Of a DNA stretch of 64,000 bases, positions 18,499 through 64,000 are shown one piece after another. Below the pieces are notes generated by a model. The model saw only the letters and a list, made by a program, of their open reading frames with translations. It did no database searches and was not told the DNA's origin. The position numbers and the translations under genes are program-made. Each line of letters opens with the position of its first letter. The stretch's first letter is position 1. The stretch is from Deltaproteobacteria bacterium (lineage in GTDB: Bacteria > Desulfobacterota > Desulfobacteria > Desulfobacterales > SG8-13), in assembly GCA_041299015.1 (NCBI GenBank), contig JBFYWB010000054.1, positions 2,526 through 66,525 on the forward strand. Reading direction: 5' to 3'.

Positions 18499-18514
18499 TG
18501 GCATTAACCTTGCT
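18499..18514 (+). promoter_or_regulatory. Sigma-54 (-24/-12) promoter candidate for the kamA operon
   Basis: TGGCAT-TAACC-TTGCT, about 240 nt upstream of the kamA ATG. Confidence 0.5.
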
Positions 18515-25875: not shown

Positions 25876-25959
25876 ATGCCAATGAAACCACTTCAGACAG
25901 CGACGATCGGCTGCGGATGCTTGTTTTTTTGCTTTAGAAGCGTCCATCCGGCTGAATGA
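25876..25959 (+). CDS. Candidate leader peptide (27 aa) with a Phe-codon cluster
   Basis: MPMKPLQTATIGCGCLFFCFRSVHPAE. It has three TTT codons within four codons (25924-25935). Its last codons overlap an antiterminator arm. The SD is weak. Confidence 0.3.
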   Translation: MPMKPLQTATIGCGCLFFCFRSVHPAE

Positions 25960-25971
25960 CGCAGTTCATTG

Positions 25972-26020
25972 AACCGCCCCGGATGGACCGCGACGCAGTC
26001 CATCCGGGGCGGTTTTTTTT
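25972..26020 (+). terminator. Strong intrinsic terminator (17-bp perfect stem plus T-run of 8)
   Basis: AACCGCCCCGGATGGAC-cgcgacgca-GTCCATCCGGGGCGGTT-TTTTTT. Confidence 0.8.
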
Positions 26021-26023
26021 AAG

Positions 26024-26049
26024 CCCCGGAAATCTGCCGGGGTTTTTTT
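26024..26049 (+). terminator. Second tandem intrinsic terminator
   Basis: CCCCGG-aaatctg-CCGGGG-TTTTTTT. Confidence 0.7.
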
Positions 26050-26144
26050 ATGGGCTTCGTGAGTGCCGCAAGGCCGGGTCACGGATCGTGACACCCGTCA
26101 TGGCGCCCGAGACTGACCTGAATAACCGCGCAAGGGAAAAAACG

Positions 26145-42031: not shown

Positions 42032-42282
42032 TTTTGACCTCCTCGCTCGACTGCGGTGAAACGGTTATTTTTAGATGATCAACAATCGCGACGGTTTTCG
42101 AAGCCAATTACTAAACCATAGTTCGACCACTCGTCAATATCGGCCGTCAAGGCATCTTAAGGAGACTATAAGGTCAAATTTTCTCTGGTCATATGGGACA
42201 CGCCGATTCTGGGTCCGACCGGCTGGCCTTGCGGCGGCAGTTCGCCCTGCGAGGGGCATCATCAGTATCACGGAGGATTGCG

Positions 42283-45326: not shown

Positions 45327-45617
45327 TGATTTTCCCCGGTGCTGCAAAACACCTATACGGGAGGGTGGAAATTGTCAATCCGAACAACCGGATCGCTCCG
45401 GGCCTATCGGGAGCCTTCAGCCGCTGCGACGATTGGTTGTGAATTGTGGCCGCGCAGAGAATCCGCTCTTGAAGAATTGGTCGGGAAATGAGATAAACGG
45501 CGCCACCGACTTTGAGGTCAGCAACATGGTGTTCATCCGCGACGATTTGACCCACAAATGACCCCAATTCAGAAGGAAAAAGAAAACCTGACTGACACAT
45601 TCGACCCTTGGAGGCAC

Positions 45618-47195: not shown

Positions 47196-47339
47196 CGTGG
47201 CCATCGCCAACCGGCCGGGGCATCACTGTATTTCTTTGTCATGCTCCGGCCGGTGATTTCCCGCCTTCCGATCTGCGACGGGCACTGAATTCCCCGGAGA
47301 CCTCGACATCGTATCCATTCAACGGAACCGATAACCGAC

Positions 47340-50300: not shown

Positions 50301-52820
50301 TCGCCGGCCGGATTGCAGGGCGACACGCGCAATCCCACGGACGAGGGGCTCTGCTATACCTTCGACCCGATTGCCAGCCTGCGTCTGCGGGTGGAACTGC
50401 CGCCGCTCGGCTCGGTTGCCGTGACCTTCGTCGACGGTTACGGTGTTAATGAACGCCAGGCCCTGGAACGCATCGCCAAACATACCGGCCGCAGCCTGCC
50501 GGCGGATATCAGTCATTGGTCCGCGTTTTCCAGAACGCGCCGGCTGAAGCAGACCGTCGCCGAAGAAAAAGACCGTGCCGGCGGCGGTAACGGTTCGCTG
50601 CCCTATCGCTTCTCTGCCGACGGCGGCGAGCTTAGCGTCGGATGGGCCACCCCGCGCCCCTGGAGTCATGTGATGGCCAACCCCCTCGGCTACGGTGCCG
50701 TGGTCTCAAACCAGGGTGCCGTGTATTCTTTCATGAAGAATTCGCAGCAAAACGGATTGACGCCTTTTGAGGCCGACTCCGCCCCGTCGCAACTGCCGGG
50801 GCAGGTCCTGTACCTTATGAACCTGACAACCGGAGAGACGGACACCCCCGCCTTCATTCCCTTCAGAAGAAAAGACCGGTCTTACGATGTCAGGTGGGGC
50901 TTGGGGTATGCGATCTACAGGAATCGAAGCGCTGCGGTCGAGCTGGAGCTGAGCCAGTTTGTTCTGCCCGACCAACCGGCCGAGATCCGGTTGCTCACAA
51001 TCCGCAACCTGACCGGAGACACTCTCCATTATCGTGTGGTGCCCTATTGGCAGATCGTGCTGGGCGAAACCCCGTTGGACACCTGCGGCAAAATCGTAAC
51101 GGATCGTGAGCGGGAACTGTCGGCGCTTTTCTTCTCCAATCCGCACAACGACTTCTGGCGCGGCTGGGCTTTTGCCGCCACGAGCCTGCGCGTGAACGCC
51201 TTTGAGACCGTGCGGTCGAGATTTCTCGGTGGAACCGCGCGGGACCTGACCAACCCCGTCCTGTTGCATAACGGAACGTCCGATGTCGCCCAGCCGGATG
51301 ACGGTTTGCGATGCGCGGCTTTCGTTGGCGAGGTGCTGGTCCCCCCGGCCGGAGAGGTGACGGTGAGCCTGGTTTTCGGGCAGACCCAAAACCGGGAGCA
51401 AGCCGCGGAGATCATCCGTAAATTCCAGGATGTCTCCACGGCCCAAAAGGCTTTTGTCGAAACCAAACAGTGGTGGGTCACCTTTCTCGAAAAGCTGAAG
51501 CTGCAAACCGGCGATGCCGCCTTCGACCGGATGATCAACTTCTGGCTGCCGTATCAGGTGCTGGTGGCCCGCCTGTGGGGTCGGATCGGCCCTTACCAGC
51601 GCAGCGGGGCTTTCGGTTTCCGGGATCAGCTGCAGGACGTCCTGCCCTTCATATCTCTCAAGCCCGAGCTGGCCCGCCGACAGATTCTGCTTCACTCCGC
51701 CCAACAGTTCCGCCAGGGCGACGTCCTGCAGTGGTGGCATCAATCCTGGGAAGATGAGACCGGCATCGGCGCTCACGGACGGGCTTCGGATCCACACCTG
51801 TGGCTTCCCTACATGGTCTATCAATATGTCAAGGCGAGCGGAGACTGGGCCATATTGGACGAAGAAACGTCCTATCTGGAAGGCCGACCGCTGGAGAAAA
51901 TGTCCGCCACCCAGGTGGCCGCGCAGCGGCCGTCACGTGACACGGCGAGCCTCTATGCGCATTGCCTCAAAGCGATCGAAATGACCCTTAAAAAAACCGG
52001 TCCGCACGGATTGCCCCTGCTGGGCGCCGGCGACTGGAATGATGGTCTCGATGCGGCCGGTATCAGAAACAGGGGCGAGAGCGTCTGGCTCGGATTCTTC
52101 TTCCATGATATTTTGATCAACTTTTCCGACCTGGTGGCTAAAAAAGAGGGGCAAGACCGTAAAAAGGAATTTCTGGCCCAAGCGGCCGAGTTGAGAGACC
52201 GTCTCGACGCCACGTGGCTGGGAGATCGATATGTCAACCATTACACCGATGACGGGCAGGTGATGGCCAGGGCCAATGCTCTGGTGACCGCCTGGTCGAT
52301 CATTTCCGGCGTCGCAGGCCCTGACAAGGGGCGGCGGGCCATGGCCACGGCTCTTCAGGAGCTTGAACAAGCGGACTTGGTTCAACTTTTCACGCCGCCC
52401 TTTACAGAACATGACGACATTTACCCCGGTCGACTGGCCGACTATCCGCCCGGTGTCCGCGAAAACGGCGGTCAATACTCTCACGGCGTCTCCTGGCTGG
52501 TCGATGCCTTGCTGTTTCTGTCGGCGGAGGCCCAGGGGCGGGGAGAAACGGAGATCGCCGCCGATTACCGAACCAAGGCCAAGGCGCTGTGGCGCAAGAT
52601 TTCACCGCTCAGCCACTTGTCGCCCGAAAATATGGCGGTGTACGGCCTACCGCCGCATCAACAGCCGGCGGATATCTATTTCGGACCGGGGTACGAGGGC
52701 AGAGGGGGCTGGAGTTGGTATACCGGTGCGGCGGGTCGCATGCTTTTCAATGCCCTCACCCTGTTGGGAATGGAGAAGAAAGGAAGAGAGGTCACCGCTT
52801 CACAGGATGAGCGTTCATAA
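47340..52820 (+). CDS. Giant membrane protein: about 720 aa of polytopic TM region fused to a GH94 (beta-1,2-oligoglucan/cellobiose phosphorylase-like, cyclic glucan synthase C-terminal type) domain
   Basis: 1826 aa. Residues 1 to about 720 are almost entirely hydrophobic helices. The rest contains LSNGTYTTEVTSDGRGYSR, FFYLRD, GDWNDGLD and RENGGQYSHGVSW, typical of GH94. I recognise no GT84 or GT2 motif. Confidence 0.8.
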   Translation: MTDKVHQKNAVVKNHQILNGSLFLCGTLAAAACSYATAQGQGWLSALPAGILGMLAAGFFKLQFTRKLLSIVEGSQNFLVPAIFAICVRAGVDIWQVPTTWNDPFVLTGLAASLFSAIYILVVVQSLAVSGRHPKPLLAAAIIVIPFLFNGLLLIGTTDLVRRIGNVVLPEKAMSSVLPTFLGRSVILGLFNEALANLIGLLVVRRLVRNVRVHVLLLGSALLVSFTPELADWGSAAYLANLPWIAAVPAALVFAMLSQAGLWSQTFLVTGLIMDAFHGKQPTWHWGADHFRSGFTKGAVYSLVFISIVQCLAVLTRIDAVVALVVAHPIFFSALAGALTFPFLKTIIETFDGSGRFFQRAGRNYMEGVSFLRGAVLGAFCGDAFANNLPAADSYQRFFFGLLAGATGYGGVDIVRDIFEVLTGKRQRLQSWRVYALGIVLGGIAGGGLAWYADRLQLRVLTSKFFKYAALYYPAADKSVSDYIIYPLFSKWGALNLGHIPGGVRLLYNEALSGVINWSLAAPLFSINLVVLNALLQRSSAPLKELFTRKGVVGLIEQAVRVLRWGLWMAPIIYSFLRMSPDPTWYNQDGAIRTLIATYKSWTLDPQSFRTWSLHVFLNLLVYDWFRILIWVDHMGLRVATLVNLSFVGADILDEKAARAVGFSARTRCMPMGLRRFATWAPLLIPFYLPRGTEWNYVWKTSADRAAQLADTAWPPVFFVVGGFLLIASVLGLFFTLHRRRIPQTASLPASDAVNGKATPDGGKTFVLSNGTYTTEVTSDGRGYSRVFSPARKGFEIDITRRPDDPLQMRGKFFYLRDGAGPTDNPENFWSIGFNPVRRREGEYRIAPTDPLALKMVAVFGGIRAEATLRLDETEPVELWQVRLDNLEKRSRIIELISYQEFGLNNTDAYRRHSFYNHLHIGTRFVRPMNALLAGNRLGKAAQKNPDRRRDSGETAFHAVKEDPQHGVTLIGYEDSRDHFIGRQSLSSPAGLQGDTRNPTDEGLCYTFDPIASLRLRVELPPLGSVAVTFVDGYGVNERQALERIAKHTGRSLPADISHWSAFSRTRRLKQTVAEEKDRAGGGNGSLPYRFSADGGELSVGWATPRPWSHVMANPLGYGAVVSNQGAVYSFMKNSQQNGLTPFEADSAPSQLPGQVLYLMNLTTGETDTPAFIPFRRKDRSYDVRWGLGYAIYRNRSAAVELELSQFVLPDQPAEIRLLTIRNLTGDTLHYRVVPYWQIVLGETPLDTCGKIVTDRERELSALFFSNPHNDFWRGWAFAATSLRVNAFETVRSRFLGGTARDLTNPVLLHNGTSDVAQPDDGLRCAAFVGEVLVPPAGEVTVSLVFGQTQNREQAAEIIRKFQDVSTAQKAFVETKQWWVTFLEKLKLQTGDAAFDRMINFWLPYQVLVARLWGRIGPYQRSGAFGFRDQLQDVLPFISLKPELARRQILLHSAQQFRQGDVLQWWHQSWEDETGIGAHGRASDPHLWLPYMVYQYVKASGDWAILDEETSYLEGRPLEKMSATQVAAQRPSRDTASLYAHCLKAIEMTLKKTGPHGLPLLGAGDWNDGLDAAGIRNRGESVWLGFFFHDILINFSDLVAKKEGQDRKKEFLAQAAELRDRLDATWLGDRYVNHYTDDGQVMARANALVTAWSIISGVAGPDKGRRAMATALQELEQADLVQLFTPPFTEHDDIYPGRLADYPPGVRENGGQYSHGVSWLVDALLFLSAEAQGRGETEIAADYRTKAKALWRKISPLSHLSPENMAVYGLPPHQQPADIYFGPGYEGRGGWSWYTGAAGRMLFNALTLLGMEKKGREVTASQDERS

Positions 52821-53065
52821 ATGGTCCTTTATTCTTCTCTTCTGTTCCAACAGAACCATAGATGGGGTGTATTGTCCCAATATTGGACACGACTTCCCCT
52901 GCATGATTGCCCCGAATTTCGAATTCACCTAATTTTTATCCTTAATTAATCGTTAATCTTCATTATCACCGACCGCTAACATTTTGTCGACATAGTATTT
53001 TTACGATACAATGCTCATTCGGTGAATGCCGCCGGATCGTTCTGGACCATTTTCATATTTGCCCG

Positions 53066-53081
53066 TGGCACACAAGTTGCT
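53066..53081 (+). promoter_or_regulatory. Sigma-54 (-24/-12) promoter, near-perfect consensus
   Basis: TGGCAC-ACAAG-TTGCT, about 85-95 nt upstream of the first flavoprotein gene and preceded by a 150-nt AT-rich region. Confidence 0.6.
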
Positions 53082-53097
53082 GACCGTGCAGTCTAAT

Positions 53098-53113
53098 GAA
53101 TAACGCGTTATTC
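53098..53113. promoter_or_regulatory. 16-bp perfect palindrome just downstream of the predicted sigma-54 transcription start
   Basis: GAATAACGCGTTATTC. Confidence 0.4.
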
Positions 53114-53162
53114 TTTAACCTTATTATAATCAAAAAAACAGACCGCTAAAGTGAAGCCGAAC

Positions 53163-55124
53163 ATGCATGAACATCTATTCTCGCCTTTGAAAATGAGGGG
53201 AATCGAACTGCCGAACCGCATCAGCTTATTGGCTCATCGCACCAATTTCAGCAAATCCGGAAGGATCACGGACCGACATATCGCCTATTACCGGCGGCGG
53301 GCCCAGGGTGGATGCGGGATGATCATCGTGGGAGAGCTGGCGGTGCACCCGGATGACCGTCCGTGGGAAACCTTGATTGCGGTTCATCGTCCGGAGGTGG
53401 TGGCGGACTTTCGAAAACTCACCGATGCCGTCCATCAATTTGATAGCCGGATCATCGCCCAGTTGAACCACCGCGGATTTCAGAGCAGCGGCCACGTGAC
53501 CCGCAAGGCGATTTTAGGGCCTTCCGCCGTCGCCGACATCGTCTTCGGCGAAACGTGCAAACCCATGGAGCCTGAAGACATGACCGACATCACGGAGGCC
53601 TTCGGCCAGTCCGCCGCCCGGGTCAGGCAGGGCGGATTCGACGGGCTCGAAATCGACATGGGGCCGGAATCGCTGCTGCGCCAGTTTCTATCACCCATCA
53701 GCAACCATCGCAGCGATGAATACGGCGGCAGCCTCGAGAACCGGATGCGCTTTCCCTTGAAAATTCTCGAAACCGTTCGAGCGGCCGTGGGGGACGATTT
53801 CACCATCGGGGTCTGCCTGTGCGCGGATGAAAAATTCTGGGGCGGCATCAATGCGGAGGAATCCGTTCAGATGGCTCAAGCATTGGAAGCCACCGGTGCC
53901 GTGGATTTCGTCAATGTTGCCGTGGGCACCTATTACAACCTTCACCTGATCATGCCGTCCATGCATATTCCCTTCGGTTTTACCATCGGCTTGGCCGAAC
54001 AGATCAAAAACGGGATCGATATTCCCGTGATGGCCAGCTACCAGATCGGTTTTCCGGGCAAGGCCGAACGGCTTATCGCGGATGGCAAGGCGGATATGGT
54101 GGGATATGTTCGGGCCATGATCAGCGACCCCGATATGGTCAAGAAGGCGCGTGAAGGCCGAATGGCCGATATCCGCTACTGCGTCAAGGATAACAAGGGG
54201 TGCATCGGCCGTGTCAATCAATCCAAGGCATTGGGGTGCATCCAGAATCCCCGGGTCGGTCTCGAGCCCCTGACCGGCGACGAGTCCTGGCCCTTGATCC
54301 GTCAAAAGAAAAAGGTCATCGTTGTGGGCGCTGGGCCGTCGGGCATGGAAGCCGCCCGGGTGGCCCACGAACGCGGTCATGACGTGACGGTCTATGAGAA
54401 GGCGGCCACCGTGGGTGGCCAGGTCAAGCTCATCGGCATGCGCCCGGGACGTGGCGCCATGCAGGGGGTGATCCGGTATCTCAGGCACATGCTCATCGAA
54501 CACGGCGTAACGATTCAGAGGGGCGTGACGGTTACACCGGAGCTGATCCTTGAACAGGCCCCGGATGCGGTGGTGGTGGCCACGGGTTCTGTCCCCATTT
54601 CAAAGCCCTTCCCCGGTGATTATGGGCCGCCGGCCGTCCTGACCGGCTGGGATGTCATTCAAGGAACCCACCCGGTGGGTGAAAAGGTCCTGTACATCGA
54701 TGAGGACGGCGGGCACCATGCCATGGCCACGGCGGAGCTGCTGGTCGAACAGGGGAAAAAGGTGGATATGGTGACCAGCGATCTGTTCATCGGCATCGAA
54801 CTGGCCCCCCGCGGAGAGCTTTACCTGGGCCGTCAGCGTCTGCTGCAAAAGGGCGCCACCTTCAGAACCGATCTGGATATTCTGGAAATCAATGCGAGCA
54901 CCGGCGGATTGCGGGTCAAGGCAAGGGACATTTACACCAACGAATCCATCCTCTTTGACGGCTACGATACGGTGGTCCTGGATGTGGGCAATGCGGTCGA
55001 TGACGACCTCTACCACCGGCTGAAAGGTCAGGTCAAAGAAGTCTACAGAACCGGAGATTGCGTTGCGCCAAGGGGAATTGACATGGCGATTATCGAAGGC
55101 AGACAGGTGGGAGAACTGTTGTGA
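53163..55124 (+). CDS. FMN/Fe-S/FAD flavoprotein of the 2,4-dienoyl-CoA reductase / trimethylamine dehydrogenase (OYE-like) family, paralog 1
   Basis: LFSPLKMRGIELPNR, GFDGLEIDM, YGGSLENRMRF, VVGAGPSGMEAA. The Fe-S motif reads CVKDNKGC-x11-C, so the second Cys is replaced by Asp. The start could be 53151 (GTG) or 53163 (ATG). Confidence 0.85.
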   Translation: MHEHLFSPLKMRGIELPNRISLLAHRTNFSKSGRITDRHIAYYRRRAQGGCGMIIVGELAVHPDDRPWETLIAVHRPEVVADFRKLTDAVHQFDSRIIAQLNHRGFQSSGHVTRKAILGPSAVADIVFGETCKPMEPEDMTDITEAFGQSAARVRQGGFDGLEIDMGPESLLRQFLSPISNHRSDEYGGSLENRMRFPLKILETVRAAVGDDFTIGVCLCADEKFWGGINAEESVQMAQALEATGAVDFVNVAVGTYYNLHLIMPSMHIPFGFTIGLAEQIKNGIDIPVMASYQIGFPGKAERLIADGKADMVGYVRAMISDPDMVKKAREGRMADIRYCVKDNKGCIGRVNQSKALGCIQNPRVGLEPLTGDESWPLIRQKKKVIVVGAGPSGMEAARVAHERGHDVTVYEKAATVGGQVKLIGMRPGRGAMQGVIRYLRHMLIEHGVTIQRGVTVTPELILEQAPDAVVVATGSVPISKPFPGDYGPPAVLTGWDVIQGTHPVGEKVLYIDEDGGHHAMATAELLVEQGKKVDMVTSDLFIGIELAPRGELYLGRQRLLQKGATFRTDLDILEINASTGGLRVKARDIYTNESILFDGYDTVVLDVGNAVDDDLYHRLKGQVKEVYRTGDCVAPRGIDMAIIEGRQVGELL

Positions 55125-57079
55125 GTGAATTCAAGTATCTTTTTTCACCACTTAAAATCGGCGCCACGGTGGTGCCCAACCGGATCCATTTCGCCGCCCA
55201 TATGACCAACTATGCGGTGGACAATCTGATCAGTGACCGGCATATTTACTATTACCGGGAACGGGCCAAGGGCGGCGCCGGTTTGATCACCACAGAGGAG
55301 ATGGGGATCCATCCCACGGATCACCCCTACGACAAGCTGGTGGATGTCTATGAGCCGGAGGTGATTCCCGGTTTCAAGCGGCTGGCCCGTACCATTCACG
55401 ACTATGACACCAAAATCTTCGCCCAGCTCAACCACAACGGCATGCAGGGAGACGGCAAGATCTCCCGACTGCCGGTGTGGGGGCCGTCAACCGGGAAGGA
55501 TCCCATCTTTCGGGAAACCTGCAAGGCCATGGAGCCCGAAGATATCCAGGAATGCATCGAGTATTTCGCCATCTGCGCCAAAAACGCGGTGGAAGGCGAG
55601 TTTGACGGCATCGAGCTGCAATTGGGGCACAGTTCCCTGATCCGGCAGTTTCTGTCGCCCCTGACCAATCACCGGCAGGACGCCTACGGCGGGAGCATGG
55701 AGAACCGCTGCCGTTTTGCCCTCGAAGTGATCGATGCAGTCCGCATGGCCGTGGGACCTGATTTTACCCTCGGGATTCGACTCAATGCCGATGAGATGCA
55801 CCCTCGGGGCGGGCTCACCCATGCAGACGCCAAACAGGTGGCCATACGGCTGGAGGCGTCCGGGCAGCTCGACTTTCTGGACCTCAGCCTGGGCACCTTC
55901 TACAATCTTTTCCTGGTGGAAGGCTCCATGCACACCCCGCTGGCCTATACGGTGCCCTTGTCCGCCGGCATGCGGTCGGTGGTCAACCTGCCGGTATTCT
56001 GTACCAACCGGATCAACGACCCCCATTTGGCGGAGAAGATCCTGGAAAACGGTCAGGCCGATATGATCGGCATGGTGCGGGCCCTGATCTGTGATCCGGA
56101 GTTGCCCAACAAATCCATGGAAGGCCGGACGGACGACATCCGGAACTGCATCGCCTGCAACCAGGGGTGCATCGCCCGCATGGGTCTCGGCTACCGTCTG
56201 GGATGCCTTCACAACCCGGCCGCCGGCGAGGAAGAAGCCTTAGGCATCGGCACCCTCAAGCCCGCCGAAACCCCCAAAAAGGTCGTAGTGGTGGGTGCGG
56301 GACCCGCCGGTCTCGAAGTGGCCCGGACGGCCACCCTGCGAAAACATCGCGTCGTCCTGCTTGAAAAGGCCGCTGAGGTCGGCGGCCAGAACATCATTGC
56401 CGGAAAAGCGGCCGGACGCCAGGAGATTACCGGCGTCACCCGCTGGCTGGTGAGCCAGCTGAACAAGCTCGAACTGGACATCCGGTTCGGCGTCGAGGCC
56501 ACGGTCGAGATGGTGCTCGCGGAAAAGCCGGACGCGGTGGTGATCGCCACCGGCTCGACCCCTAAAACCGCGCCGTTTCCCGGCCAATACGGTCCGCCGC
56601 AGGTGGTGACCACCGTGCAGATCCTCACCAATGAAATCGAGGCCGGCGACAAGGTTCTGCTCATCGACCTGGACGGCCACCATCAGGCCACCGGCACGGC
56701 GGAGATTCTGGCGGATCGCGGCAAACAGGTTCACATGCTTACCGCGGCGCTCTTTATCGGATCGGCCCTGGGCCCCCTTCAGGATCTCTACCTCACCCGC
56801 AGCCGGCTTGCCAAAAAAGGGGTGACCTTCACCCCCGACATCGCGGTGCTCGAGATCCAGGGCACCCTGGTCAAGGGACTGAACGTCTATTCCAACGAAT
56901 TGATCGATTTCGACGGGTACGATACGGTGGTGCTGGCGGCGGGGAATACGGCCAACGACGGCCTTTATTTTGAGTTGAAGGGCAAAGTGGAGGAACTATA
57001 CCGGGTCGGCGATTGCGTGGCGCCCCGGAAAACGGACATGGCCATTATCGAGGGTCATCGCATCGGCAGAACCATATAG
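55121..57079 (+). CDS. FMN/4Fe-4S/FAD flavoprotein of the same family, paralog 2
   Basis: LFSPLKIGATVVPNR, FDGIELQLGH, YGGSMENRCRF, canonical CIACNQGC-x11-C, VVGAGPAGLEVA. The GTG start overlaps the upstream stop (GTGA). Confidence 0.85.
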   Translation: MSEFKYLFSPLKIGATVVPNRIHFAAHMTNYAVDNLISDRHIYYYRERAKGGAGLITTEEMGIHPTDHPYDKLVDVYEPEVIPGFKRLARTIHDYDTKIFAQLNHNGMQGDGKISRLPVWGPSTGKDPIFRETCKAMEPEDIQECIEYFAICAKNAVEGEFDGIELQLGHSSLIRQFLSPLTNHRQDAYGGSMENRCRFALEVIDAVRMAVGPDFTLGIRLNADEMHPRGGLTHADAKQVAIRLEASGQLDFLDLSLGTFYNLFLVEGSMHTPLAYTVPLSAGMRSVVNLPVFCTNRINDPHLAEKILENGQADMIGMVRALICDPELPNKSMEGRTDDIRNCIACNQGCIARMGLGYRLGCLHNPAAGEEEALGIGTLKPAETPKKVVVVGAGPAGLEVARTATLRKHRVVLLEKAAEVGGQNIIAGKAAGRQEITGVTRWLVSQLNKLELDIRFGVEATVEMVLAEKPDAVVIATGSTPKTAPFPGQYGPPQVVTTVQILTNEIEAGDKVLLIDLDGHHQATGTAEILADRGKQVHMLTAALFIGSALGPLQDLYLTRSRLAKKGVTFTPDIAVLEIQGTLVKGLNVYSNELIDFDGYDTVVLAAGNTANDGLYFELKGKVEELYRVGDCVAPRKTDMAIIEGHRIGRTI

Positions 57080-57087
57080 GAGGGGCC

Positions 57088-58077
57088 ATGTGTGATATCT
57101 GGATAGTCGTTGAACACAGAGACGGCGAGATCGAGGACGCCACCTTTGGCCTCGCCACTGAGGCCAGGCGGCTGATCGCACAACTGGGCGAAGCGGGCCA
57201 GGTAACCGCCGTCGCATTAGGGTCCGCACCCGAATCGGTGCTGGCAGCGCTGGGCGCCTATGGCGTAAACCGGGTGCTGCATGTCACCAATGCCTGGATG
57301 ACGCGCTACCAGGGCGAAATCTTCGGCCGGGCATTATTTGATCTCGTTCAAAAAGAGAATCCGGCCTGTCTGCTCATGGCCCAGTCATCGGAAACGGAGG
57401 ACCTGGCCCAGCGGGTGGCCGCCATGATGAAGACGGCCCTGGTCACCCGGGCCATGGATTTTTCCATGACGGCCGACGGCACCGCCCGGGCCATTCGTCC
57501 GGTGGCCAATGGGTATCTCTTCGAAGACGTGATGCTCGACAGCCGCCCGTCCCCCATTGTCCTGTTTCTGCCGTCCGTGCTCTTCGATACGGAACCCGAC
57601 CGGGAGGAGACGGCCGCGGTGATCAATGTTTCGTTCCCGGGTCCGGCGGACGACCTGAAAACCCGCACTGTGCAGGTGATCGAAGCCGCACCGGAAGACC
57701 TGGACCTGGAAGAGGCCGATATCATCGTCGCCGGAGGCCGGGGCGTCGGCAAAGGAGCGTCCTTTGATGTCATCCATGCATTGGCCCGGACCATCGGCGG
57801 GTCGGTGGGCGGCACCCGGCCCATCATCGACTGGGGCGTCCTGCCCTACGAACGCCAAATCGGGCAGACCGGCAAGTATGTCTCCCCCCGATTGATCATC
57901 AACTGCGGTATCTCAGGTGCCAATGAATACACGGCGGGCATGGAAAAATCTCAGCAGGTCATTGCCATCGATCTCAACCCGAGGGCCCGGATGTTTCGGT
58001 TTGCCGACTTGGGCGTGGTCGGCGATGTTCATGAAATCCTACCCTTGTTGATTTCCCGAATCGAGGATCAGAAATGA
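57088..58077 (+). CDS. etfA: Electron transfer flavoprotein alpha subunit
   Basis: 329 aa from an ATG with GGAGGGG upstream. IIVAGGRGVG ... IGGSVGGTRPIIDWGVLPYERQIGQTGKYVSPRLIINCGISGANEY. Confidence 0.9.
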   Translation: MCDIWIVVEHRDGEIEDATFGLATEARRLIAQLGEAGQVTAVALGSAPESVLAALGAYGVNRVLHVTNAWMTRYQGEIFGRALFDLVQKENPACLLMAQSSETEDLAQRVAAMMKTALVTRAMDFSMTADGTARAIRPVANGYLFEDVMLDSRPSPIVLFLPSVLFDTEPDREETAAVINVSFPGPADDLKTRTVQVIEAAPEDLDLEEADIIVAGGRGVGKGASFDVIHALARTIGGSVGGTRPIIDWGVLPYERQIGQTGKYVSPRLIINCGISGANEYTAGMEKSQQVIAIDLNPRARMFRFADLGVVGDVHEILPLLISRIEDQK

Positions 58078-58892
58078 ATGGATACCTGTTCAAACCCATA
58101 TACAGGTGCGCAATGGTGATCTCCATGGTCATCACCATGCTGATCGCCGGGCATGCCCGCGCATCCGTAACCGAAGCCGCGACGGTCTACACGCCTGAGG
58201 ACTGCATCGAATGCCATCGAACGGGGAGCGAGGAAAGCGGGCTCCAAATCTTCGTCGAAGAATATGAAGCCTCCGTCCACGGCCCGGAAATCACCTGCTT
58301 GGATTGCCACACCGGTGTGGTTGACGATCAACACCAGAGCACCAAGGGATCGGGGGCTGTGGACTGCAGCGCTTGCCACGAGCAGGAAAACCGGCACGGT
58401 TTGAACGGGCCGGAAGAACAGCGCCCACATTGCTACGACTGCCACACTCGGCATCACATGCTATCGAAGACCGATCCGGCGTCTGCCGTCCATCCCGATC
58501 ATTTGGCAGTCACCTGCGCCGGGTGTCATCCGGCGGCATCCGGTGAAACCGATTTTTTCTCGTGGTTTCCCTCTTTCCAGATCGCTTCCCACAACAAAGG
58601 GGATTTCGCGACCGCCTATAATAAAGACAATTGCCTGGGATGTCATCAGGGCGCCGCCGTCCACGGCGAGTCGGTACCAATCAACGATCAGGATTGCTAC
58701 AAGTGTCACTTCTCCCCGGATGCGGCCGGCGCCATGTGGGGGAATATGCATTCCAAGCCGGACCTGAAGACACAGCCGGCCGTCTTTGCCGCCGCCTCGA
58801 TCTATCAAATCTTTGTCGCCATCGGGCTCATCGTGCTCCTGGGCAAATTTCTGAACCTCGTTTTCGATAGATTCTCCGGAAAATCGAAATAG
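58074..58892 (+). CDS. Heptaheme c-type cytochrome with an N-terminal signal and a C-terminal TM anchor
   Basis: Seven CxxCH motifs (CIECH, CLDCH, CSACH, CYDCH, CAGCH, CLGCH, CYKCH). The C-terminal helix is AVFAAASIYQIFVAIGLIVLLG. The ATG overlaps the etfA stop (ATGA). Confidence 0.85.
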   Translation: MNGYLFKPIYRCAMVISMVITMLIAGHARASVTEAATVYTPEDCIECHRTGSEESGLQIFVEEYEASVHGPEITCLDCHTGVVDDQHQSTKGSGAVDCSACHEQENRHGLNGPEEQRPHCYDCHTRHHMLSKTDPASAVHPDHLAVTCAGCHPAASGETDFFSWFPSFQIASHNKGDFATAYNKDNCLGCHQGAAVHGESVPINDQDCYKCHFSPDAAGAMWGNMHSKPDLKTQPAVFAAASIYQIFVAIGLIVLLGKFLNLVFDRFSGKSK

Positions 58893-58958
58893 ACGGTTAA
58901 AACGGTAGGATCAAATCGGTAAAACAAAGCGGTAAGTCATTTATTGAGGAGATAAGCG

Positions 58959-60893
58959 TTGAAGGCATTGTTAACCTCATTCGATTTGTTATTGATCGCA
59001 GCGGCGTTCCTTATCATGGCGGTCGGTTTGGCCCGGCGATGGTCGTTGTGGCGGACAAAAAAACCTGCCGGCATCTCCGGCGACTGGCAGGGGCTGAAGA
59101 CTTCTTTGCTGCTGCATCGCGGCATCCTGCGAAGGCCCTCGGTGGGCGGGGCGCATCTGGCTGCATTCTGGGGTGTCCTCATTCCCCTGATCGTGATCAT
59201 ACTCGTCCAATTCGGGTTCATCATCCCCCAGGCACCGGCCAAACTGCTCTCCCTGGTTCAGGATCTGGCGGGCATTGCGTTGTTGATCGGCACCCTGTTC
59301 CTGCTGTTTCGACGCTTGGGAAGCACGGATGCCGAAGGGCCCTCGCGCACCATGGTGCCCATGGTTCTGCTGCTGGTCATCCTTGTCTCCGGGTTCATGG
59401 CCGAAGGCACGCGGCTGAGCATCCTCCGGGCCGACGGGGTTCCGTGGGCGTCGCCCATGGGATGGTTTTTCTCTCTGATATCCCCGGCCTCGCCGGTCTT
59501 CATGCAGATGATGATCCGCCTGCATTTCTTCGCCGTGCTCGCTCTCATCGCGGCCATTCCGTTTACCTTCATGCGCCATGCCGCGGCCTCGCCCCTGAAC
59601 GTATTTTACAGGAAACAGGGCGCCAGGGCCGCATTGACGCTTCCATCGATCGAAAGCGGAGAGATCGGTGCAAAAACGGTTAAAGACCTTTCCTGGAAAC
59701 AGATGCTGGATGCCGAAGCCTGTGTCGCTTGCGGCAGGTGCGACGAGAACTGCCCGGCCGCCATCTCGGGCAAACCCCTGTCCCCCCGGAAGATCATCCG
59801 AAATATACGGGAACAGATGGAGACGGTCGCCGCCGATCAAAAGCGACGCGGGAATGCACTGGGGAACGTGCCCGAACCGCCGCTCCTGGCAAACGCCGTC
59901 AGAGCGGATGAAATGTGGGCGTGCACCTCCTGCATGGCCTGTGTGGAACATTGCCCGGTCTTTATCGAACCCCTGGACAAGATCATCGACATGCGGCGGT
60001 ATCAGGTCATGGGCGAGGCCCGGCTGCCCGCCGAAGCCCGGCCGATGATCCGGGATCTGGACCTTTACGGCGATGTTCAGGGCAAGGGTGTGGCCCATCG
60101 GGCAGACTGGGCCATGAACCGGAAGGTTCCTCAGATGTCCCAGGCTCCCGCCCAAAGCGGATCCGATGTGGACATCCTCCTGTGGGTCGGTTGTTCCGGC
60201 GCATTTCATCCCCGGAACCAGGAGACCAGCCGGGCCATGGTGAAGATTCTCAAGGCTGCCGGCATCCGGTTCGCCATATTGGGAAAAGAGGAGGTGTGCT
60301 GCGGTGATCCTGCCCGGCGGTTGGGCGACGAGATCCTCTTCCGAAAGCTGGCCCGGGCGAACATCGACCGATTAAACCATTATCAGGTGAAAAAAATCGT
60401 CACCCTGTGCCCTCACTGCCTGAATACCCTGAAAAATGAATATCCGGATTTGGGATGTAAAATGGAAGTGATTCATGCCACGGAACTGGTCATGACCCTG
60501 ATCCGCGACAAACGCATCGCCCTGAAGTATCCCGTGGCGGATAAAATGGCCATACACGATGCCTGTTATCTGGGTCGATATAACCAGGTTTATGAGCCGC
60601 CTCGGGATATCTGCCGGGCCGTGCCGGGCTCCCGGCTCAAGGAAACGGCGCGGAACCGGGGCAGCGGCTTCTGCTGCGGCGGCGGCGGCGGACGGATGTG
60701 GCTGCACGAGAACATCGGTCAAAACATCAATGTGGTCCGGGCCGCGGAGCTGGCCAAGACCGATGTCGATTTGATCGGCACCGCTTGCCCCTATTGTCTG
60801 GTCATGCTGGACGACGGTGTGAAATCCCTCGAACTGGAAAAAACGCCGAAAGTGGCCGACATTATCGACATCGTTGCCGACTCATTGGGTTAG
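58959..60893 (+). CDS. Membrane-integral Fe-S oxidoreductase: N-terminal NarI/HdrE-like multi-TM domain fused to an HdrD/DsrK-like 2x[4Fe-4S] module with two CCG domains (ETF:quinone oxidoreductase type)
   Basis: The N-terminal ~220 aa hold 5-6 TM helices with conserved His. CVACGRCDENCP and CTSCMACVEHCP are ferredoxin motifs. CCG motifs are EVCCGDP and GFCCGGGGG. TTG start with GAGGAG upstream. Confidence 0.85.
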   Translation: MKALLTSFDLLLIAAAFLIMAVGLARRWSLWRTKKPAGISGDWQGLKTSLLLHRGILRRPSVGGAHLAAFWGVLIPLIVIILVQFGFIIPQAPAKLLSLVQDLAGIALLIGTLFLLFRRLGSTDAEGPSRTMVPMVLLLVILVSGFMAEGTRLSILRADGVPWASPMGWFFSLISPASPVFMQMMIRLHFFAVLALIAAIPFTFMRHAAASPLNVFYRKQGARAALTLPSIESGEIGAKTVKDLSWKQMLDAEACVACGRCDENCPAAISGKPLSPRKIIRNIREQMETVAADQKRRGNALGNVPEPPLLANAVRADEMWACTSCMACVEHCPVFIEPLDKIIDMRRYQVMGEARLPAEARPMIRDLDLYGDVQGKGVAHRADWAMNRKVPQMSQAPAQSGSDVDILLWVGCSGAFHPRNQETSRAMVKILKAAGIRFAILGKEEVCCGDPARRLGDEILFRKLARANIDRLNHYQVKKIVTLCPHCLNTLKNEYPDLGCKMEVIHATELVMTLIRDKRIALKYPVADKMAIHDACYLGRYNQVYEPPRDICRAVPGSRLKETARNRGSGFCCGGGGGRMWLHENIGQNINVVRAAELAKTDVDLIGTACPYCLVMLDDGVKSLELEKTPKVADIIDIVADSLG

Positions 60894-60926
60894 CCGTTAA
60901 TACTTCTACCACCAAACGAGGATGAA

Positions 60927-61835
60927 ATGAAAATCATCGTCTGCGCCAAGCAAATTCGACACACCTATGCGAGAACGGGAACATCGCCCGAATCACATTA
61001 TATCCGCCCTGAAGACGGTGTCTACCGCGTTAACCCTCACGATGAAGCGGCTCTCGAACTGGCACTGCGCCTGAAAGACGTATACGAAAACACCACCGTC
61101 GTGCTGCTCACCCTGGGGCCGATGATCGCCGAAGAGGAGATTCGACGGTGCCTGGCCACCGGCGCCGACGACCTATACCAGATCAAGGTAAACGGGCACC
61201 CGCCTTTTCCGGCAGACCCCCTCGATCAGCCCGACCCGTGGGTCAAATCGGATCTCATGGCCCGAGCCGTGAAAGAACTTGGAGGGGATCTGGTGCTCTG
61301 CGGTAAAGCGTCTCTCGATAAAGCCAGCGGTCAAGTGGGAGCGCTGCTGGCACACCGCCTCGACCTGCCGTTTGTATCGGCCATCACAGACCTCACTATC
61401 ACAGATCTTTCCATGAATAAATCCGGCGGCACCTTACAGGTGCAGCGAAGCGCCGGCCGCGGGGTTCGGGAAATCATCGAATGCCGGCTGCCGGCCGTCT
61501 TCAGCGTGGATTTGGGGCCGGATCTCCGGCTCCCGAAATTTTCCGAGCGACAACGGGTCAAAGCCTATGCCCCCAAGCAACTGGATTGCGGCGCTGCTGT
61601 CGATGCCCCGAAGTTGGTCTGCGCCCACCGGTTTCAGCCGCGCCCCCGTCCGAAGATCGTCCCCGCGCCGGACAGCCGCCTGCAGGCTTATGAACGCATC
61701 ATGCAGCTTCTCGCCGGCAGCAAAGTGGAGAAAAAAGGGGAGATCTTGACCGGGAGTCCTGAATCTCAGGTCGAGGGCATTATCGCTTTTCTAAGAGCCA
61801 ATGACTTCCTCCTATCGACCAATGCAGACCCATAA
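60927..61835 (+). CDS. etfB: Electron transfer flavoprotein beta subunit
   Basis: MKIIVCAKQI ... VNPHDEAALELALRLKD ... DLVLCGKASLDKASGQVGALLAHRLDLPFVSAI. Confidence 0.85.
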   Translation: MKIIVCAKQIRHTYARTGTSPESHYIRPEDGVYRVNPHDEAALELALRLKDVYENTTVVLLTLGPMIAEEEIRRCLATGADDLYQIKVNGHPPFPADPLDQPDPWVKSDLMARAVKELGGDLVLCGKASLDKASGQVGALLAHRLDLPFVSAITDLTITDLSMNKSGGTLQVQRSAGRGVREIIECRLPAVFSVDLGPDLRLPKFSERQRVKAYAPKQLDCGAAVDAPKLVCAHRFQPRPRPKIVPAPDSRLQAYERIMQLLAGSKVEKKGEILTGSPESQVEGIIAFLRANDFLLSTNADP

Positions 61836-63306
61836 CCGCCCTTTGACCTTTCGGCTGAGACCTTCAGCCCGATACCACTGCCTGCCCGACGGGAAGACGG
61901 CGCTGGTGCTGCTCTTCCCACTGCGGGCGGTGTTTGTTCATGCGTTCTGGCATCCGGTGCCGGCCTGCCTGGGCCATGATGCGTGGGTGCCGCTGGAACG
62001 AATCGCAGAAGCGGTGCCCCATATTACTTCCGAACAGATCGAACTCTTCCTGAACACCCTGATTCAAAAGGGGTACGTCACCCAGGAAGGCTTTCCCCTG
62101 CTCGATGACGCCGATTATCCGACGGTGTCCGTCATCATACCGGTCAGAAACCGGCCAGAGGAGATCACCGCCTGCCTTAGCACATTGACCCGCCTCGATT
62201 ATCCGGCCGAAAAGCTGGAGATCATCGTGGTGGACGATGCCTCCGAAGATGTCACCCCCGAGGCGGTGGCCCGATTCCATGAGGCACGCCTCCTCCGGAT
62301 GCAGCAGCACCGTCAGGCATCTTTTTGCCGCAATCGGGCCGCCGAAGCCGCCCGGGGAGACATCCTGGCATTCATCGATTCGGATTGCCTGGCCGATCCC
62401 ACCTGGCTCAAGGAATTGGTGCCCGCGTTTCGAGACGCGTCACTCGGCGCATTGGGCGGCTGGGTCGATGCCGCCTTCGAAGAAAACGGGCTGGACCGGT
62501 ATGAAAAGGTCAAGTCGTCTCTCAAGATAGGGGCCTGGTTTAAGCGATCCGAACAGGCCGAACGCTTTTTTTATGTGCCCGCCTGTAATTTCCTGGTCAG
62601 AAGAGAGGCTTTTTTAAGCCTGGGCGGCTTCCGGGAGACCCTTAATGTGGGCGAAGATGTCGATTTGTGTTGGCGGTTGCAAGACGCGGGACATATTTTG
62701 GAATATCGACCCATGGGCAGGGTGGCCCACAAGCACCGGAACCGCCTCGCCGCCTTTTGCACCAGGCGCTTCGATTACGGTACCTCCGAACCCATGCTCC
62801 AGCAGCTGCACACCGGCCGGGTGAAAACCCTTTATCTGCCTTGGTCCGAATCCCTTTTCTGGCTGATCGTCATCCTGTCGATGGCGCTGAAAACTGCCCT
62901 GCCTCTTTTGCTGGGTGCGGGGTTGCTCCTGGTGGACGCTATAAGAAAACACGGCAAACTGAAGACCCGGCGGATCCCTGTCACGCAATGCCAGGTTTTC
63001 ACGGCCATCATCCGCGGCTATCTATCCTTCTTCTATCATTGTTGCAGTTTTATATCCCGTTATTACCTGGTCGTCGTGCCGGCGGTATTGCTCTTGTCTC
63101 CACTGACTGCCGCCGTTATTTTCGGGATGCATCTGACAGCCGGCATTGTAGAATATATGGTCAAGAAACCGCGCCTGAATCCGTTGTCGTTTTTGCTCTT
63201 TTTCACCTTGGAACAGGTATCCTATCAATCCGGTGTGTGGTGGGAGTGCATTCATCGGGTCAACTTCCACCCGGTGCTGCCGAGGATCATTCACAAGCGG
63301 AGTTGA
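61822..63306 (+). CDS. Family-2 glycosyltransferase with an extra N-terminal domain and C-terminal TM helices
   Basis: VSVIIPVRNRPEEITACLSTL ... IIVVDDASED ... LAFIDSDC, then 4-5 C-terminal TM helices. The start is uncertain, and the ORF overlaps the etfB 3' end. Confidence 0.75.
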   Translation: MQTHNRPLTFRLRPSARYHCLPDGKTALVLLFPLRAVFVHAFWHPVPACLGHDAWVPLERIAEAVPHITSEQIELFLNTLIQKGYVTQEGFPLLDDADYPTVSVIIPVRNRPEEITACLSTLTRLDYPAEKLEIIVVDDASEDVTPEAVARFHEARLLRMQQHRQASFCRNRAAEAARGDILAFIDSDCLADPTWLKELVPAFRDASLGALGGWVDAAFEENGLDRYEKVKSSLKIGAWFKRSEQAERFFYVPACNFLVRREAFLSLGGFRETLNVGEDVDLCWRLQDAGHILEYRPMGRVAHKHRNRLAAFCTRRFDYGTSEPMLQQLHTGRVKTLYLPWSESLFWLIVILSMALKTALPLLLGAGLLLVDAIRKHGKLKTRRIPVTQCQVFTAIIRGYLSFFYHCCSFISRYYLVVVPAVLLLSPLTAAVIFGMHLTAGIVEYMVKKPRLNPLSFLLFFTLEQVSYQSGVWWECIHRVNFHPVLPRIIHKRS

Positions 63307-63472: not shown

Positions 63473-63748
63473 ATGCCAAAGTACATCATCGAACGCGAAT
63501 TGCCGGGCGCCGGGAATCTTGGAGACGATCAGATTCAGGGCATTTCACAAAAATCATGCCAGGTACTGGGTGAATTGGGGCCCCAGATTCAATGGGTGGA
63601 AAGCTTTGTTACCGATGATAAAATCTATTGTGTGTACATTGCCCCCAGCAAGGATTTGATCGAAAAGCACGCGCAGCAAGGCGGCTTTCCGGCAAACCAA
63701 ATCTCGAAAGTCAGGCGAATGATCGATCCGACGAGCGCCGAAGGATAA
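63473..63748 (+). CDS. DUF4242-family small protein
   Basis: MPKYIIERELPGAG ... VQWVESFVTDDKIYCVYIAPS ... AAAGGAGA lies upstream. Confidence 0.65.
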   Translation: MPKYIIERELPGAGNLGDDQIQGISQKSCQVLGELGPQIQWVESFVTDDKIYCVYIAPSKDLIEKHAQQGGFPANQISKVRRMIDPTSAEG

Positions 63749-63775: not shown

Positions 63776-64000
63776 ATGGCTGATCGCAAAGTCACCGTGA
63801 TCGCGCGGCTAAAGGCCAAGCCCGGTTTGGAGGAGAAAGTCAAGAGAGAAGTCATGAATCTGGTAGCACCGACCCGAGCGGAAGCCGGGTGCATCAATTA
63901 CGACCTGCACCTATCATCCGACGACCCGACGCTCTTGATGCTCTACGAAAACTGGGTCAGCAAGAAGGCTCTGGACGAGCACCTGGCCATGCCCTATCTG
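63776..64000 (+). CDS. Antibiotic-biosynthesis-monooxygenase (ABM) domain protein. It runs off the 3' edge and is absent from the ORF track.
   Basis: The ATG at 63776 follows AAAGGAGG. The protein reads MADRKVTVIARLKAKPGLEEKVKREVMNLVAPTRAEAGCINYDLH ... LMLYENWVSKKALDEH. Confidence 0.7.
   Translation, partial: MADRKVTVIARLKAKPGLEEKVKREVMNLVAPTRAEAGCINYDLHLSSDDPTLLMLYENWVSKKALDEHLAMPYL

Follow-up and report, generated by a model that had tools for sequence, protein, structure and literature searches.

Two flavoprotein genes, the genes of an electron transfer flavoprotein (ETF), a multiheme cytochrome c and a membrane Fe-S protein form one run on a 64,000-nucleotide stretch of contig JBFYWB010000054.1 from a Desulfobacterales bacterium (assembly GCA_041299015.1; the whole stretch is hereafter called the window). 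The cytochrome and Fe-S protein genes are located between the two ETF subunit genes, etfA and etfB. Which substrate would deliver electrons to such a system, and where would the electrons go? Our analysis indicated that the operon could be the redox, electron-export half of a mycofactocin cluster of the Desulfobacterota type, transcribed from a sigma-54 promoter in the order FP1-FP2-etfA-cytochrome-EMO-etfB-mftF, where FP1 and FP2 are the flavoproteins and EMO stands for ETF:menaquinone oxidoreductase. We put the probability of this reading at about 0.45.

Mycofactocin genes in the operon and in relatives

The preliminary description of this DNA did not know the gene combination as a described system, a view that our analysis did not support. 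With 874 bits, FP2 exceeds the 793-bit cut-off of NCBIfam model TIGR03997, which is named "mycofactocin system FadH/OYE oxidoreductase 2" (OYE, old yellow enzyme), and FP1 stays narrowly under it with 761 bits. The gene that follows etfB encodes a glycosyltransferase of the MftF family (365 bits on TIGR03965, cut-off 280), mftABC abut FP1 in relatives, and the mycofactocin-associated OYE/ETF set is already catalogued in NCBIfam. Public homologues of FP2 carry the same family name, and the public annotations of identical or near-identical proteins, which come from Desulfobacterales or Desulfosarcinaceae metagenome-assembled genomes (MAGs), use the same mycofactocin names.

To compare gene order, related contigs (numbered with L) were gathered by exact-protein look-ups and a metagenome scan, and were classified by tblastn. 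Contigs were counted if FP2 was at least 68% identical and the flanking DNA was sufficient; the counts refer to contigs, many of them closely related, and not to independent lineages. Among informative contigs, FP1 is present in 36/36, EtfA in 43/44 (the exception is a fragment), the EMO-type protein in 30/30 and EtfB in 25/25, and MftF follows etfB in 19/23. In 27 of 30 contigs, the gene of the heptaheme cytochrome stands between etfA and that of the Fe-S protein, and 29 of 30 have a cytochrome of any kind; the cluster of L121 has none. The cytochrome and Fe-S genes are co-conserved with etfAB and the flavoproteins, as the preliminary description had proposed to check.

Genuine mftA (with the C-terminus …IDGICGVY), mftB and mftC are located directly upstream of FP1 in L006/7 (the Olavius Delta-1 symbiont), L110, L111, L120, L121, L144, L169 (a Desulfobacula MAG) and L171 (a complete Desulfobacterales genome). 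In L006, MftA, MftB and MftC all score over the curated cut-offs; for MftC the value on TIGR03962 is 372 bits, compared to a cut-off of 265. Intact mftA and mftB are found in L006, L110, L111, L117, L120, L121 and L144, and in L169 and L172 a small open reading frame (ORF) and an mftB gene are called at the mftA-mftB position. The arrangement varies in several contigs. In L117, mftABC stand further upstream of FP1, with mftF and an iron-type alcohol dehydrogenase (Fe-ADH) gene in between. The short fragment L125 shows the mftA-mftC arrangement beside its only flavoprotein gene; in L172, an FP1-type paralogue alone accompanies mftABC and is the only redox gene there; in L170, mftABC stand alone elsewhere in the genome.

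Other genes are also conserved in the mft clusters of relatives. They encode an Fe-ADH, a zinc-type alcohol dehydrogenase (Zn-ADH), a short-chain dehydrogenase/reductase (SDR) of the mycofactocin-coupled type, a tungsten-type aldehyde oxidoreductase (AOR) and a sigma-54 activator; the best match of the Zn-ADH is the model for alcohol dehydrogenases dependent on N,N-dimethyl-4-nitrosoaniline (NDMA). The module is thus associated in relatives with mycofactocin genes and with genes of alcohol and aldehyde oxidation. As far as the related loci were annotated or scanned, they showed no mftD, mftE or mftG. mftA, mftB, mftC and mftF are universal in mycofactocin clusters, and MftD and MftE are absent from some species (Haft 2011). 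MftG, the mycofactocinol dehydrogenase that feeds respiration, occurs in only ∼75% of the genomes with mftC (PMC11778925).

The two flavoproteins

Both flavoproteins contain the Oxidored_FMN domain of Pfam (E = 1.5e-60 for FP1 and 7e-65 for FP2) and a Pyr_redox_2 domain. The top PDB match of both is 2-naphthoyl-CoA reductase (NCR, 6QKG), with E values of 2e-83 for FP1 and 6e-91 for FP2. By overall similarity, NCR is followed by FadH, and then by trimethylamine dehydrogenase (TMADH) and histamine dehydrogenase. FadH, the 2,4-dienoyl-CoA reductase of Escherichia coli (1PS9), has the NADPH site GCGGIG in its third domain. At this place, FP2 reads LIDLDGHHQATG, which aligns with ILNADTYFMAPS of TMADH and with FIGGNEIS of NCR, whose motif is also degenerate. 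The residues at the GCGGIG position, IDEDGGHH in FP1 and IDLDGHHQ in FP2, are kept in the orthologues, and GHH is common to both paralogues. In the alignment, the FadH-type GxGxxG site is absent from the third domain of both FP1 and FP2, in agreement with the preliminary description.

The further proposal that the flavoproteins resemble TMADH more than FadH stands for the third-domain region only, since in overall sequence they are nearest to NCR, then to FadH, and only then to TMADH. Like TMADH of Methylophilus W3A1 (1O94), they are composed of FMN, [4Fe-4S] and nucleotide domains, lack an NAD(P)H motif in the third domain and have a genetically dedicated ETF. However, Cys30 of TMADH, which carries the 6-S-cysteinyl-FMN, is replaced by Arg in FP1 and by Met in FP2, and the aromatic bowl (Tyr60, Trp264 and Trp355) is absent, its positions being aligned with Glu, Leu and Met. 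Different from NCR and FadH, the proteins are encoded as a paralogous pair together with an ETF, and the operon has no naphthalene or fatty-acid pathway context.

An Fe-S motif was described for both flavoproteins. It is present in both, but FP1 has Asp in place of the second Cys. The motif of FP1, C-x2-D-x3-C-x11-C, spans residues ∼343–363 (CVKDNKGC…C) and is kept in all FP1 orthologues; some FP2 orthologues also carry the Asp (CIADNQGC). The motif suggests that FP1 binds either an Asp-ligated [4Fe-4S] cluster or a [3Fe-4S] cluster. FP1 and FP2 are ∼48% identical to each other. Because their genes are always adjacent and are translationally coupled, the two proteins probably form a heterodimer.

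The ETF subunits

Neither ETF subunit reaches the cut-off of a mycofactocin-specific model. EtfA scores 131 bits on mft_etfA (NF038209, cut-off 240) and 188 bits, again under the respective cut-off, on the ETF model of acryloyl-CoA reductase. The best NCBIfam match of EtfB is mft_etfB (TIGR04503), with 101 bits for a cut-off of 200.

Overall, the closest PDB matches of EtfA and EtfB are bifurcating ETFs. In bifurcating (group 2) ETFs, an invariant small residue, Gly123 in the numbering of A. fermentans EtfB, leaves room for a second FAD (PMC12630350). In the alignment, EtfB of the window has Lys at this position; an electron-bifurcating ETF was set aside for this reason, and a canonical ETF with one FAD (the AMP type) is predicted.

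The membrane unit

In Pfam, the membrane Fe-S protein comprises Nitrate_red_gam, a 4Fe-4S dicluster domain and two CCG (non-cubane cluster) domains. Five transmembrane (TM) helices are predicted, with the N-terminus outside. The sole PDB match is 9OJN, the EMO of M. smegmatis (MsEMO), with an E value of 3e-97 over both the TM and the Fe-S parts. EMO has five TM helices, an HdrC-like pair of cubane clusters and an HdrB-like non-cubane domain (layout and mechanism in 10.64898/2026.08.18.745454), and the protein of the window matches this layout. As judged from its sequence, the protein is a member of the EMO-type ETF:menaquinone oxidoreductase family, which bears out its first description as such an enzyme. 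Among the NarI-type histidines, His66, His189 and His207 are invariant, and His53 is found in 4/5 sequences. MsEMO keeps the NarI-type histidines in the alignment too, yet its distal heme is reported to be absent (preprint 10.64898/2026.08.18.745454); therefore, the number of hemes b is not readable from sequence.

With exactly seven CxxCH motifs, a signal-like segment at the N-terminus (residues 8–26) and one C-terminal TM helix (residues 246–264), the cytochrome is the C-terminally anchored, seven-heme protein that had been described. Its matches to the c3/c7 families of Pfam are weak; it has no sequence relative in the PDB and no match to the TmcA or HmcA models of NCBIfam. Public annotations call the cytochrome "hypothetical" and the Fe-S protein "heterodisulfide reductase-related". 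The latter scores far under the cut-offs of TmcB (62 bits, cut-off 735) and HmcF (21 bits, cut-off 750), and also under that of DsrK (32 bits).

Two variants of the locus bear on the relation between the two proteins. In L012 (8465–11095), a single 876-aa ORF carries a seven-heme domain N-terminal of an EMO-type protein; the anchor helix of the cytochrome substitutes for TM1, so that the fusion is topologically consistent. It is flanked by etfA and etfB and has an acyl-CoA ligase, a Pyr_redox_2 protein and an HMGL-like protein as neighbors. OYE and mycofactocin genes are absent from this locus, which shows that etfA-cytochrome/EMO-etfB is a portable module leading from ETF to the membrane. In Desulfobacula (L011, 4355–13861; L169, 3904–21017 of MAG JAQYWD010000001.1), a true 16-heme HmcA (539 bits, cut-off 400) replaces the heptaheme cytochrome and is followed by HmcB-like, NrfD/HmcC-like and DVU_0533 (HmcD-like) genes; upstream of this cluster are genes for a sigma-54 activator, Zn-ADH and AOR, and mftA, mftB and mftC. 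The cytochrome is a genuine partner of the EMO-type protein, coupled to it in nature by fusion.

The fusion, the exchange for HmcA and its HmcB/C/D-like companions, and the conservation of the cytochrome gene uphold the earlier analogy to the Tmc and Hmc complexes. Like these, the unit brings together a multiheme cytochrome c on the periplasmic side, a cytochrome b resembling NarI and a CCG protein resembling HdrD. Different from them, the b-type and CCG parts are fused in one protein, and the cytoplasmic partner is ETF and not DsrC.

The unit also resembles EMO of Syntrophus aciditrophicus and of M. smegmatis (9OJN), in which a five-TM NarI-like part, an HdrC-like [4Fe-4S] pair and an HdrB-like CCG domain form a single chain encoded with etfAB. 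It differs from them in the heptaheme cytochrome, and in the donor of its ETF, which is an OYE/TMADH-type flavoprotein pair instead of an acyl-CoA dehydrogenase. We scanned a genome collection with the Fe-S protein as anchor, but the scan was swamped by the generic pattern FCCGGGGG. Among the matches listed, most were EMO-like genes of Actinomycetota and Chloroflexota with 34–42% identity, and two were close relatives. These distant homologues, which have ETF genes adjacent, are in the matches listed usually found beside an intact pair, in the order etfB-etfA-EMO; a position of EMO between the two ETF genes is therefore characteristic of the cassette described here.

In contig L137, a FixC-like gene for an ETF acceptor is again located between etfA and etfB.

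Operon layout and sigma-54 control

As listed in Table 1, the six genes of the preliminary description were recovered as plus-strand ORFs at the positions given there, and the ORF coordinates confirm the 4-nt overlaps of FP1 with FP2 (at 55121) and of etfA with the cytochrome gene (at 58074). The end of the unit had to be moved. It had been set at the end of etfB (61835); however, the ORF of a seventh gene, mftF, overlaps the etfB end, and mftF thus belongs to the same operon.

Table 1. Coordinates of the operon, its control elements and its downstream genes in the window
Feature	Position	Strand	Length	Description
Candidate sigma-54 activator site (upstream activator sequence, UAS) TGTCCCAATATTGGACA / TGTCCCAAWATTGGACA	52873-52889	+		TGT-N11-ACA, near-palindrome
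Sigma-54 -24/-12 promoter TGGCACacaagTTGCT	53066-53081	+		Motif scan and conservation
FP1	53151-55124	+	657 aa	Flavoprotein with OYE-barrel FMN, Fe-S and FAD-or-ADP parts; TIGR03997 paralogue with Cys-Asp-Cys-Cys cluster motif
FP2	55121-57079	+	652 aa	FMN, [4Fe-4S] site, one GxGxxG, no NAD(P)H motif
etfA	57088-58077	+	329 aa	FAD-binding ETF alpha subunit; Pfam ETF and ETF_alpha
Cytochrome c	58074-58892	+	272 aa	Heptaheme, signal peptide, C-terminal membrane anchor
EMO-type membrane Fe-S protein	58959-60893	+	644 aa	NarI-like 5-TM part, two [4Fe-4S], two CCG
etfB	60927-61835	+	302 aa	ETF beta subunit with C-terminal extension; Pfam ETF
mftF	61801-63306	+		GT2 glycosyltransferase; TIGR03965
SCO4226-like small protein	63473-63748	+		Pfam PF14026; conserved accessory gene
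ABM-domain protein	63776-64000 (cut by the window end)	+		L002 10304-10618 maps to 63776 onward

Phylogenetic footprinting and the activator genes of relatives support the sigma-54 control that had been proposed from the promoter motif. The window contains 3 sigma-54-type sites, compared to 0.16 expected by chance. A -24/-12 element is found 82–85 nt upstream of FP1 in nine relatives (L091, L092, L103, L106, L113, L118, L124, L130 and L132). When the upstream regions of 8 diverged loci were aligned, three islands were invariant, namely the candidate UAS TGTCCCAAWATTGGACA, the -24/-12 element and the region of the GTG start. The UAS motif is unique in the window, where 0.02 matches are expected by chance. 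It occurs in exact form once in each of 12 related loci, and in the 5 loci checked it lies 270–277 nt upstream of FP1. Judged by this conservation, positions 52873–52889 are a candidate binding site for a sigma-54 activator. Genes for such an activator adjoin the cluster in L111, L169, L103, L106, L108, L116 and L118, often accompanied by a divergent Fe-ADH gene. No activator gene was found among the 20 other large ORFs of the window that were scanned. A terminator scan of the window gave 10 hits, with 11.7 expected.

The SCO4226-like gene that follows mftF is syntenic in L008, L090, L099, L101, L108, L116, L118, L122 and L124. In near-identical contigs, the ABM gene is followed by two radical SAM/SPASM genes, rSAM1 and rSAM2 (L002, 10966–13251, just past the window end). 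These two genes recur downstream of mftF, together with the ABM and SCO4226-like genes, in L099, L108, L111, L116, L118 and L124. They match no curated family; the best NCBIfam match of rSAM1 is MftC (95 bits, cut-off 265), to which it is 26% identical. In L116, rSAM2 directly follows mftA, and neither mftB nor mftC stands beside that mftA. Simple substitution of MftC by rSAM1/rSAM2 was considered and seems improbable, as L111 holds both true mftBC and rSAM1/2.

A possible route from mycofactocin to the respiratory chain

In the reading that we favor, nicotinoprotein alcohol dehydrogenases would reduce mycofactocin, and FP1/FP2, with the TMADH/NCR architecture and no NAD(P)H site, would oxidize the reduced cofactor. 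The E0′ of premycofactocin is about -255 mV (quoted in PMC11778925). The flavoproteins would pass the electrons to their dedicated ETF, predicted to be of the canonical one-FAD type, which would dock to the EMO-type protein at its cytoplasmic CCG domain. From there, two [4Fe-4S] clusters and NarI-like hemes b would lead to menaquinone, to the periplasmic heptaheme cytochrome, or to both. This chain, from mycofactocin through flavoproteins, ETF and EMO to menaquinone or cytochrome, is one that we infer from the gene set. The module would then be an anaerobic counterpart of mycobacterial MftG, draining the mycofactocin pool into the respiratory chain. MftG, a flavoenzyme of the glucose-methanol-choline (GMC) family, is alike only in this proposed role, the reoxidation of mycofactocin into respiration (PMC11778925), and belongs to an unrelated protein family.

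The evidence for this reading is that FP2 and MftF score over their cut-offs, that the ETF subunits match mycofactocin ETF models, although under cut-off, and that the flavoproteins align with the ETF-dependent TMADH where the NADPH motif is missing. The likeness to the mycofactocin system (mftABCDEFG) with its NCBIfam accessories (TIGR03997 and TIGR03996 for OYE 2 and OYE 1, NF038209 and TIGR04503) further includes the genuine mftABC that abut FP1 in relatives and the nicotinoprotein-type dehydrogenases. It is incomplete in that the window has no mftA, mftB or mftC, mftD, mftE and mftG were not seen in the related loci, and EtfA, EtfB and FP1 score under the cut-offs; besides, genes for an EMO-type protein and a multiheme cytochrome separate etfA from etfB here.

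Several observations weigh against the favored reading. In the window, and in relatives whose FP2 is at least 88% identical, mftB and mftC are missing next to the operon. A tblastn search with Desulfobacterota MftC gave no match in the window, and six-frame searches of the window and of 10 kb downstream found neither MftA (with the IDGxCGVY end) nor MftB. No hidden precursor was found in the window or in near-identical contigs when GVY-type C-termini, the MftA core motif and the conserved small ORFs of diverged type II loci were looked for. The close relatives L126 and L097 (FP2 92–95% identical) have only decayed mftA fragments upstream of FP1, and mftB and mftC are absent from both. L126 (FP2 95%) carries two 3′ fragments without a start, at 843–914 and 2575–2646, and L097 a single fragment at ∼1150–1240 that has lost its stop codon; upstream of FP1 in the window there is no mftA fragment. 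In L096, L098, L122 and L140 (FP2 87–92% identical), mftF is lost as well, and rSAM2 or the SCO4226-like gene comes directly after etfB, while the flavoprotein, ETF, cytochrome and EMO genes are intact. The redox module can thus function without biosynthesis genes in its cluster. In the window, the cofactor would need to be made elsewhere in the genome, supplied by another route, or scavenged. Moreover, no experiment ties any TIGR03997 protein to the oxidation of mycofactocin, NCR and FadH, the nearest proteins of solved structure, have CoA thioesters as substrates, and in L137 a cassette OYE-OYE-etfA-FixC-etfB stands in a CoA-ester context with no mft genes.

More tentatively, we propose for strictly anaerobic Desulfobacterota that mycofactocin would be reoxidized not by MftG but by the flavoprotein pair, which would feed the dedicated ETF and an EMO/Tmc-like transmembrane complex with a periplasmic multiheme cytochrome at its end. 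In the lineage of the window, the sigma-54-controlled module would have outlived mftABC, implying scavenging of the cofactor, an alternative radical-SAM route through rSAM1/rSAM2, or a new substrate.

Other roles for the module

An unlikely alternative is that FP1, and perhaps FP2, is an oxygen-independent replacement of MftD that oxidatively deaminates 3-amino-5-(4-hydroxybenzyl)-4,4-dimethyl-2-pyrrolidinone (AHDP) to premycofactocin, in the manner of the amine dehydrogenases of the TMADH/histamine dehydrogenase family, with ETF and EMO as an electron sink only. This family, which oxidizes amines and reduces ETF, is among the PDB matches of FP1 and FP2. The FP1-type gene always directly follows mftC, which is the position of mftD in the actinobacterial order, and in L172 it is the sole redox gene beside mftABC; such a replacement would also fit the failure to see mftD or mftE in the Desulfobacterota loci, two genes that other mycofactocin species lack too (Haft 2011). 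However, a biosynthetic step of low flux would hardly call for its own ETF, a membrane quinone reductase and a multiheme cytochrome; relatives without mftABC, some of them also without mftF, keep the module, and the Cys30 and aromatic bowl of TMADH are absent. The joint control of the module and alcohol dehydrogenases by sigma-54 speaks for catabolism instead. The survival of the module after the loss of mftABC and mftF also counts in favor of a role in CoA-ester metabolism, to which we give a low probability too: FP1 and FP2 would be ETF-coupled enzymes of the OYE type that act on CoA esters or other organic compounds, similar to NCR, FadH or dienoyl-CoA oxidoreductase, and would exchange electrons with EMO and the cytochrome in either direction, as in enoyl-CoA respiration. 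The mft genes would then be mere pathway neighbors, for example in a route from alcohol through aldehyde and acid to acyl-CoA. NCR (E = 6e-91) and FadH are the best solved relatives, EMO runs in both directions (PMC8805022), and acyl-CoA ligases are encoded close to the cluster in L005 and L172, and beside the etfA-cytochrome/EMO-etfB unit of L012. In L137 (1395–17460), the genes OYE-OYE-etfA-FixC-like-etfB-OYE are found with two acyl-CoA ligases, a CoA-transferase and a metallo-beta-lactamase (MBL)-fold hydrolase. Yet the linkages of FP1 with mftC and of etfB with mftF are tight, often with overlapping genes, across many diverged contigs, FP2 scores above the threshold curated for a family that NCBI associates with mycofactocin loci, and no genes of CoA metabolism are conserved inside the cluster.

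Electrons might also run inward, as in the classic proposals for Tmc and Hmc: periplasmic cytochromes reduced by H2 or formate would feed the heptaheme cytochrome, EMO, ETF and finally the flavoproteins, which would reduce mycofactocin or an organic substrate. The Tmc/Hmc-like composition and the Desulfobacula variant with true HmcA and HmcB/C/D-like genes are in line with it, and enzymes of the NCR type are reductases. We nevertheless consider this direction improbable, for the conserved neighbors (Fe-ADH, Zn-ADH, SDR and AOR) are oxidative and would produce reduced cofactor. The sequence does not reveal in which direction electrons flow, a point that counts against inward flow and against the favored reading alike.

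Other features of the window

Immediately upstream of the operon (45558–52820) are genes for OpgG/MdoG (E = 3e-194) and for an 1826-aa protein with two C-terminal GH94 domains and a long hydrophobic N-terminal region that has no Pfam match; the latter is a possible synthase of cyclic or periplasmic glucan. A second sigma-54-type promoter, TGGCATTAACCTTGCT, is located at 18499 and is followed, up to 24605, by a lysine-2,3-aminomutase-like radical SAM gene, two D-Ala-D-Ala-ligase-like ATP-grasp genes and a histone-deacetylase/GNAT fusion. Three unusual ORFs of the window encode a 704-aa fusion of 3-deoxy-D-arabino-heptulosonate 7-phosphate (DAHP) synthase, prephenate dehydratase and an ACT domain (25956–28070), an acetyl-CoA hydrolase/transferase fused to a GNAT domain (40154–42031, minus strand), and an 840-aa product with no Pfam match (42193–44715).

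Implications

The association of OYE and ETF genes with mycofactocin is already contained in NCBI family models and names, where it comes from family annotation rather than from experiment, and a paper that cites the name of the mycofactocin OYE family uses it as an annotation label. We found no paper that connects mycofactocin to ETF, OYE or cytochromes in Desulfobacterota or discusses mycofactocin in this phylum, and none that describes an EMO-type protein and a multiheme cytochrome inserted between ETF genes. The following features appear to be undescribed: ETF genes separated by EMO together with either a multiheme cytochrome or an Hmc module; the fusion of cytochrome and EMO; the Asp-containing cluster motif; the sigma-54 regulatory architecture; and the decay of biosynthetic genes around a retained redox module. 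The last of these calls for caution in annotation, because a family name alone is no proof of a working mycofactocin system where the redox module is kept and the biosynthesis genes are lost.

To our knowledge, mycofactocin is known almost only from aerobic actinobacteria, and MftG was reportedly identified as its reoxidation enzyme in 2025. The cluster studied here is a concrete candidate for the link between mycofactocin and respiration in anaerobes, and would provide the first hypothesis on what the families named "mycofactocin system OYE" and "mycofactocin-associated ETF" do. The EMO-cytochrome variants indicate that ETF:quinone oxidoreductases of the EMO type can recruit or fuse periplasmic multiheme cytochromes, or swap them for Hmc modules, and they tie ETF-linked catabolism to the Tmc/Hmc world of sulfate reducers. 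If the wider proposal for strictly anaerobic Desulfobacterota is true, a peptide-derived cofactor would be plugged directly into the quinone pool and the periplasmic cytochrome network of these organisms.

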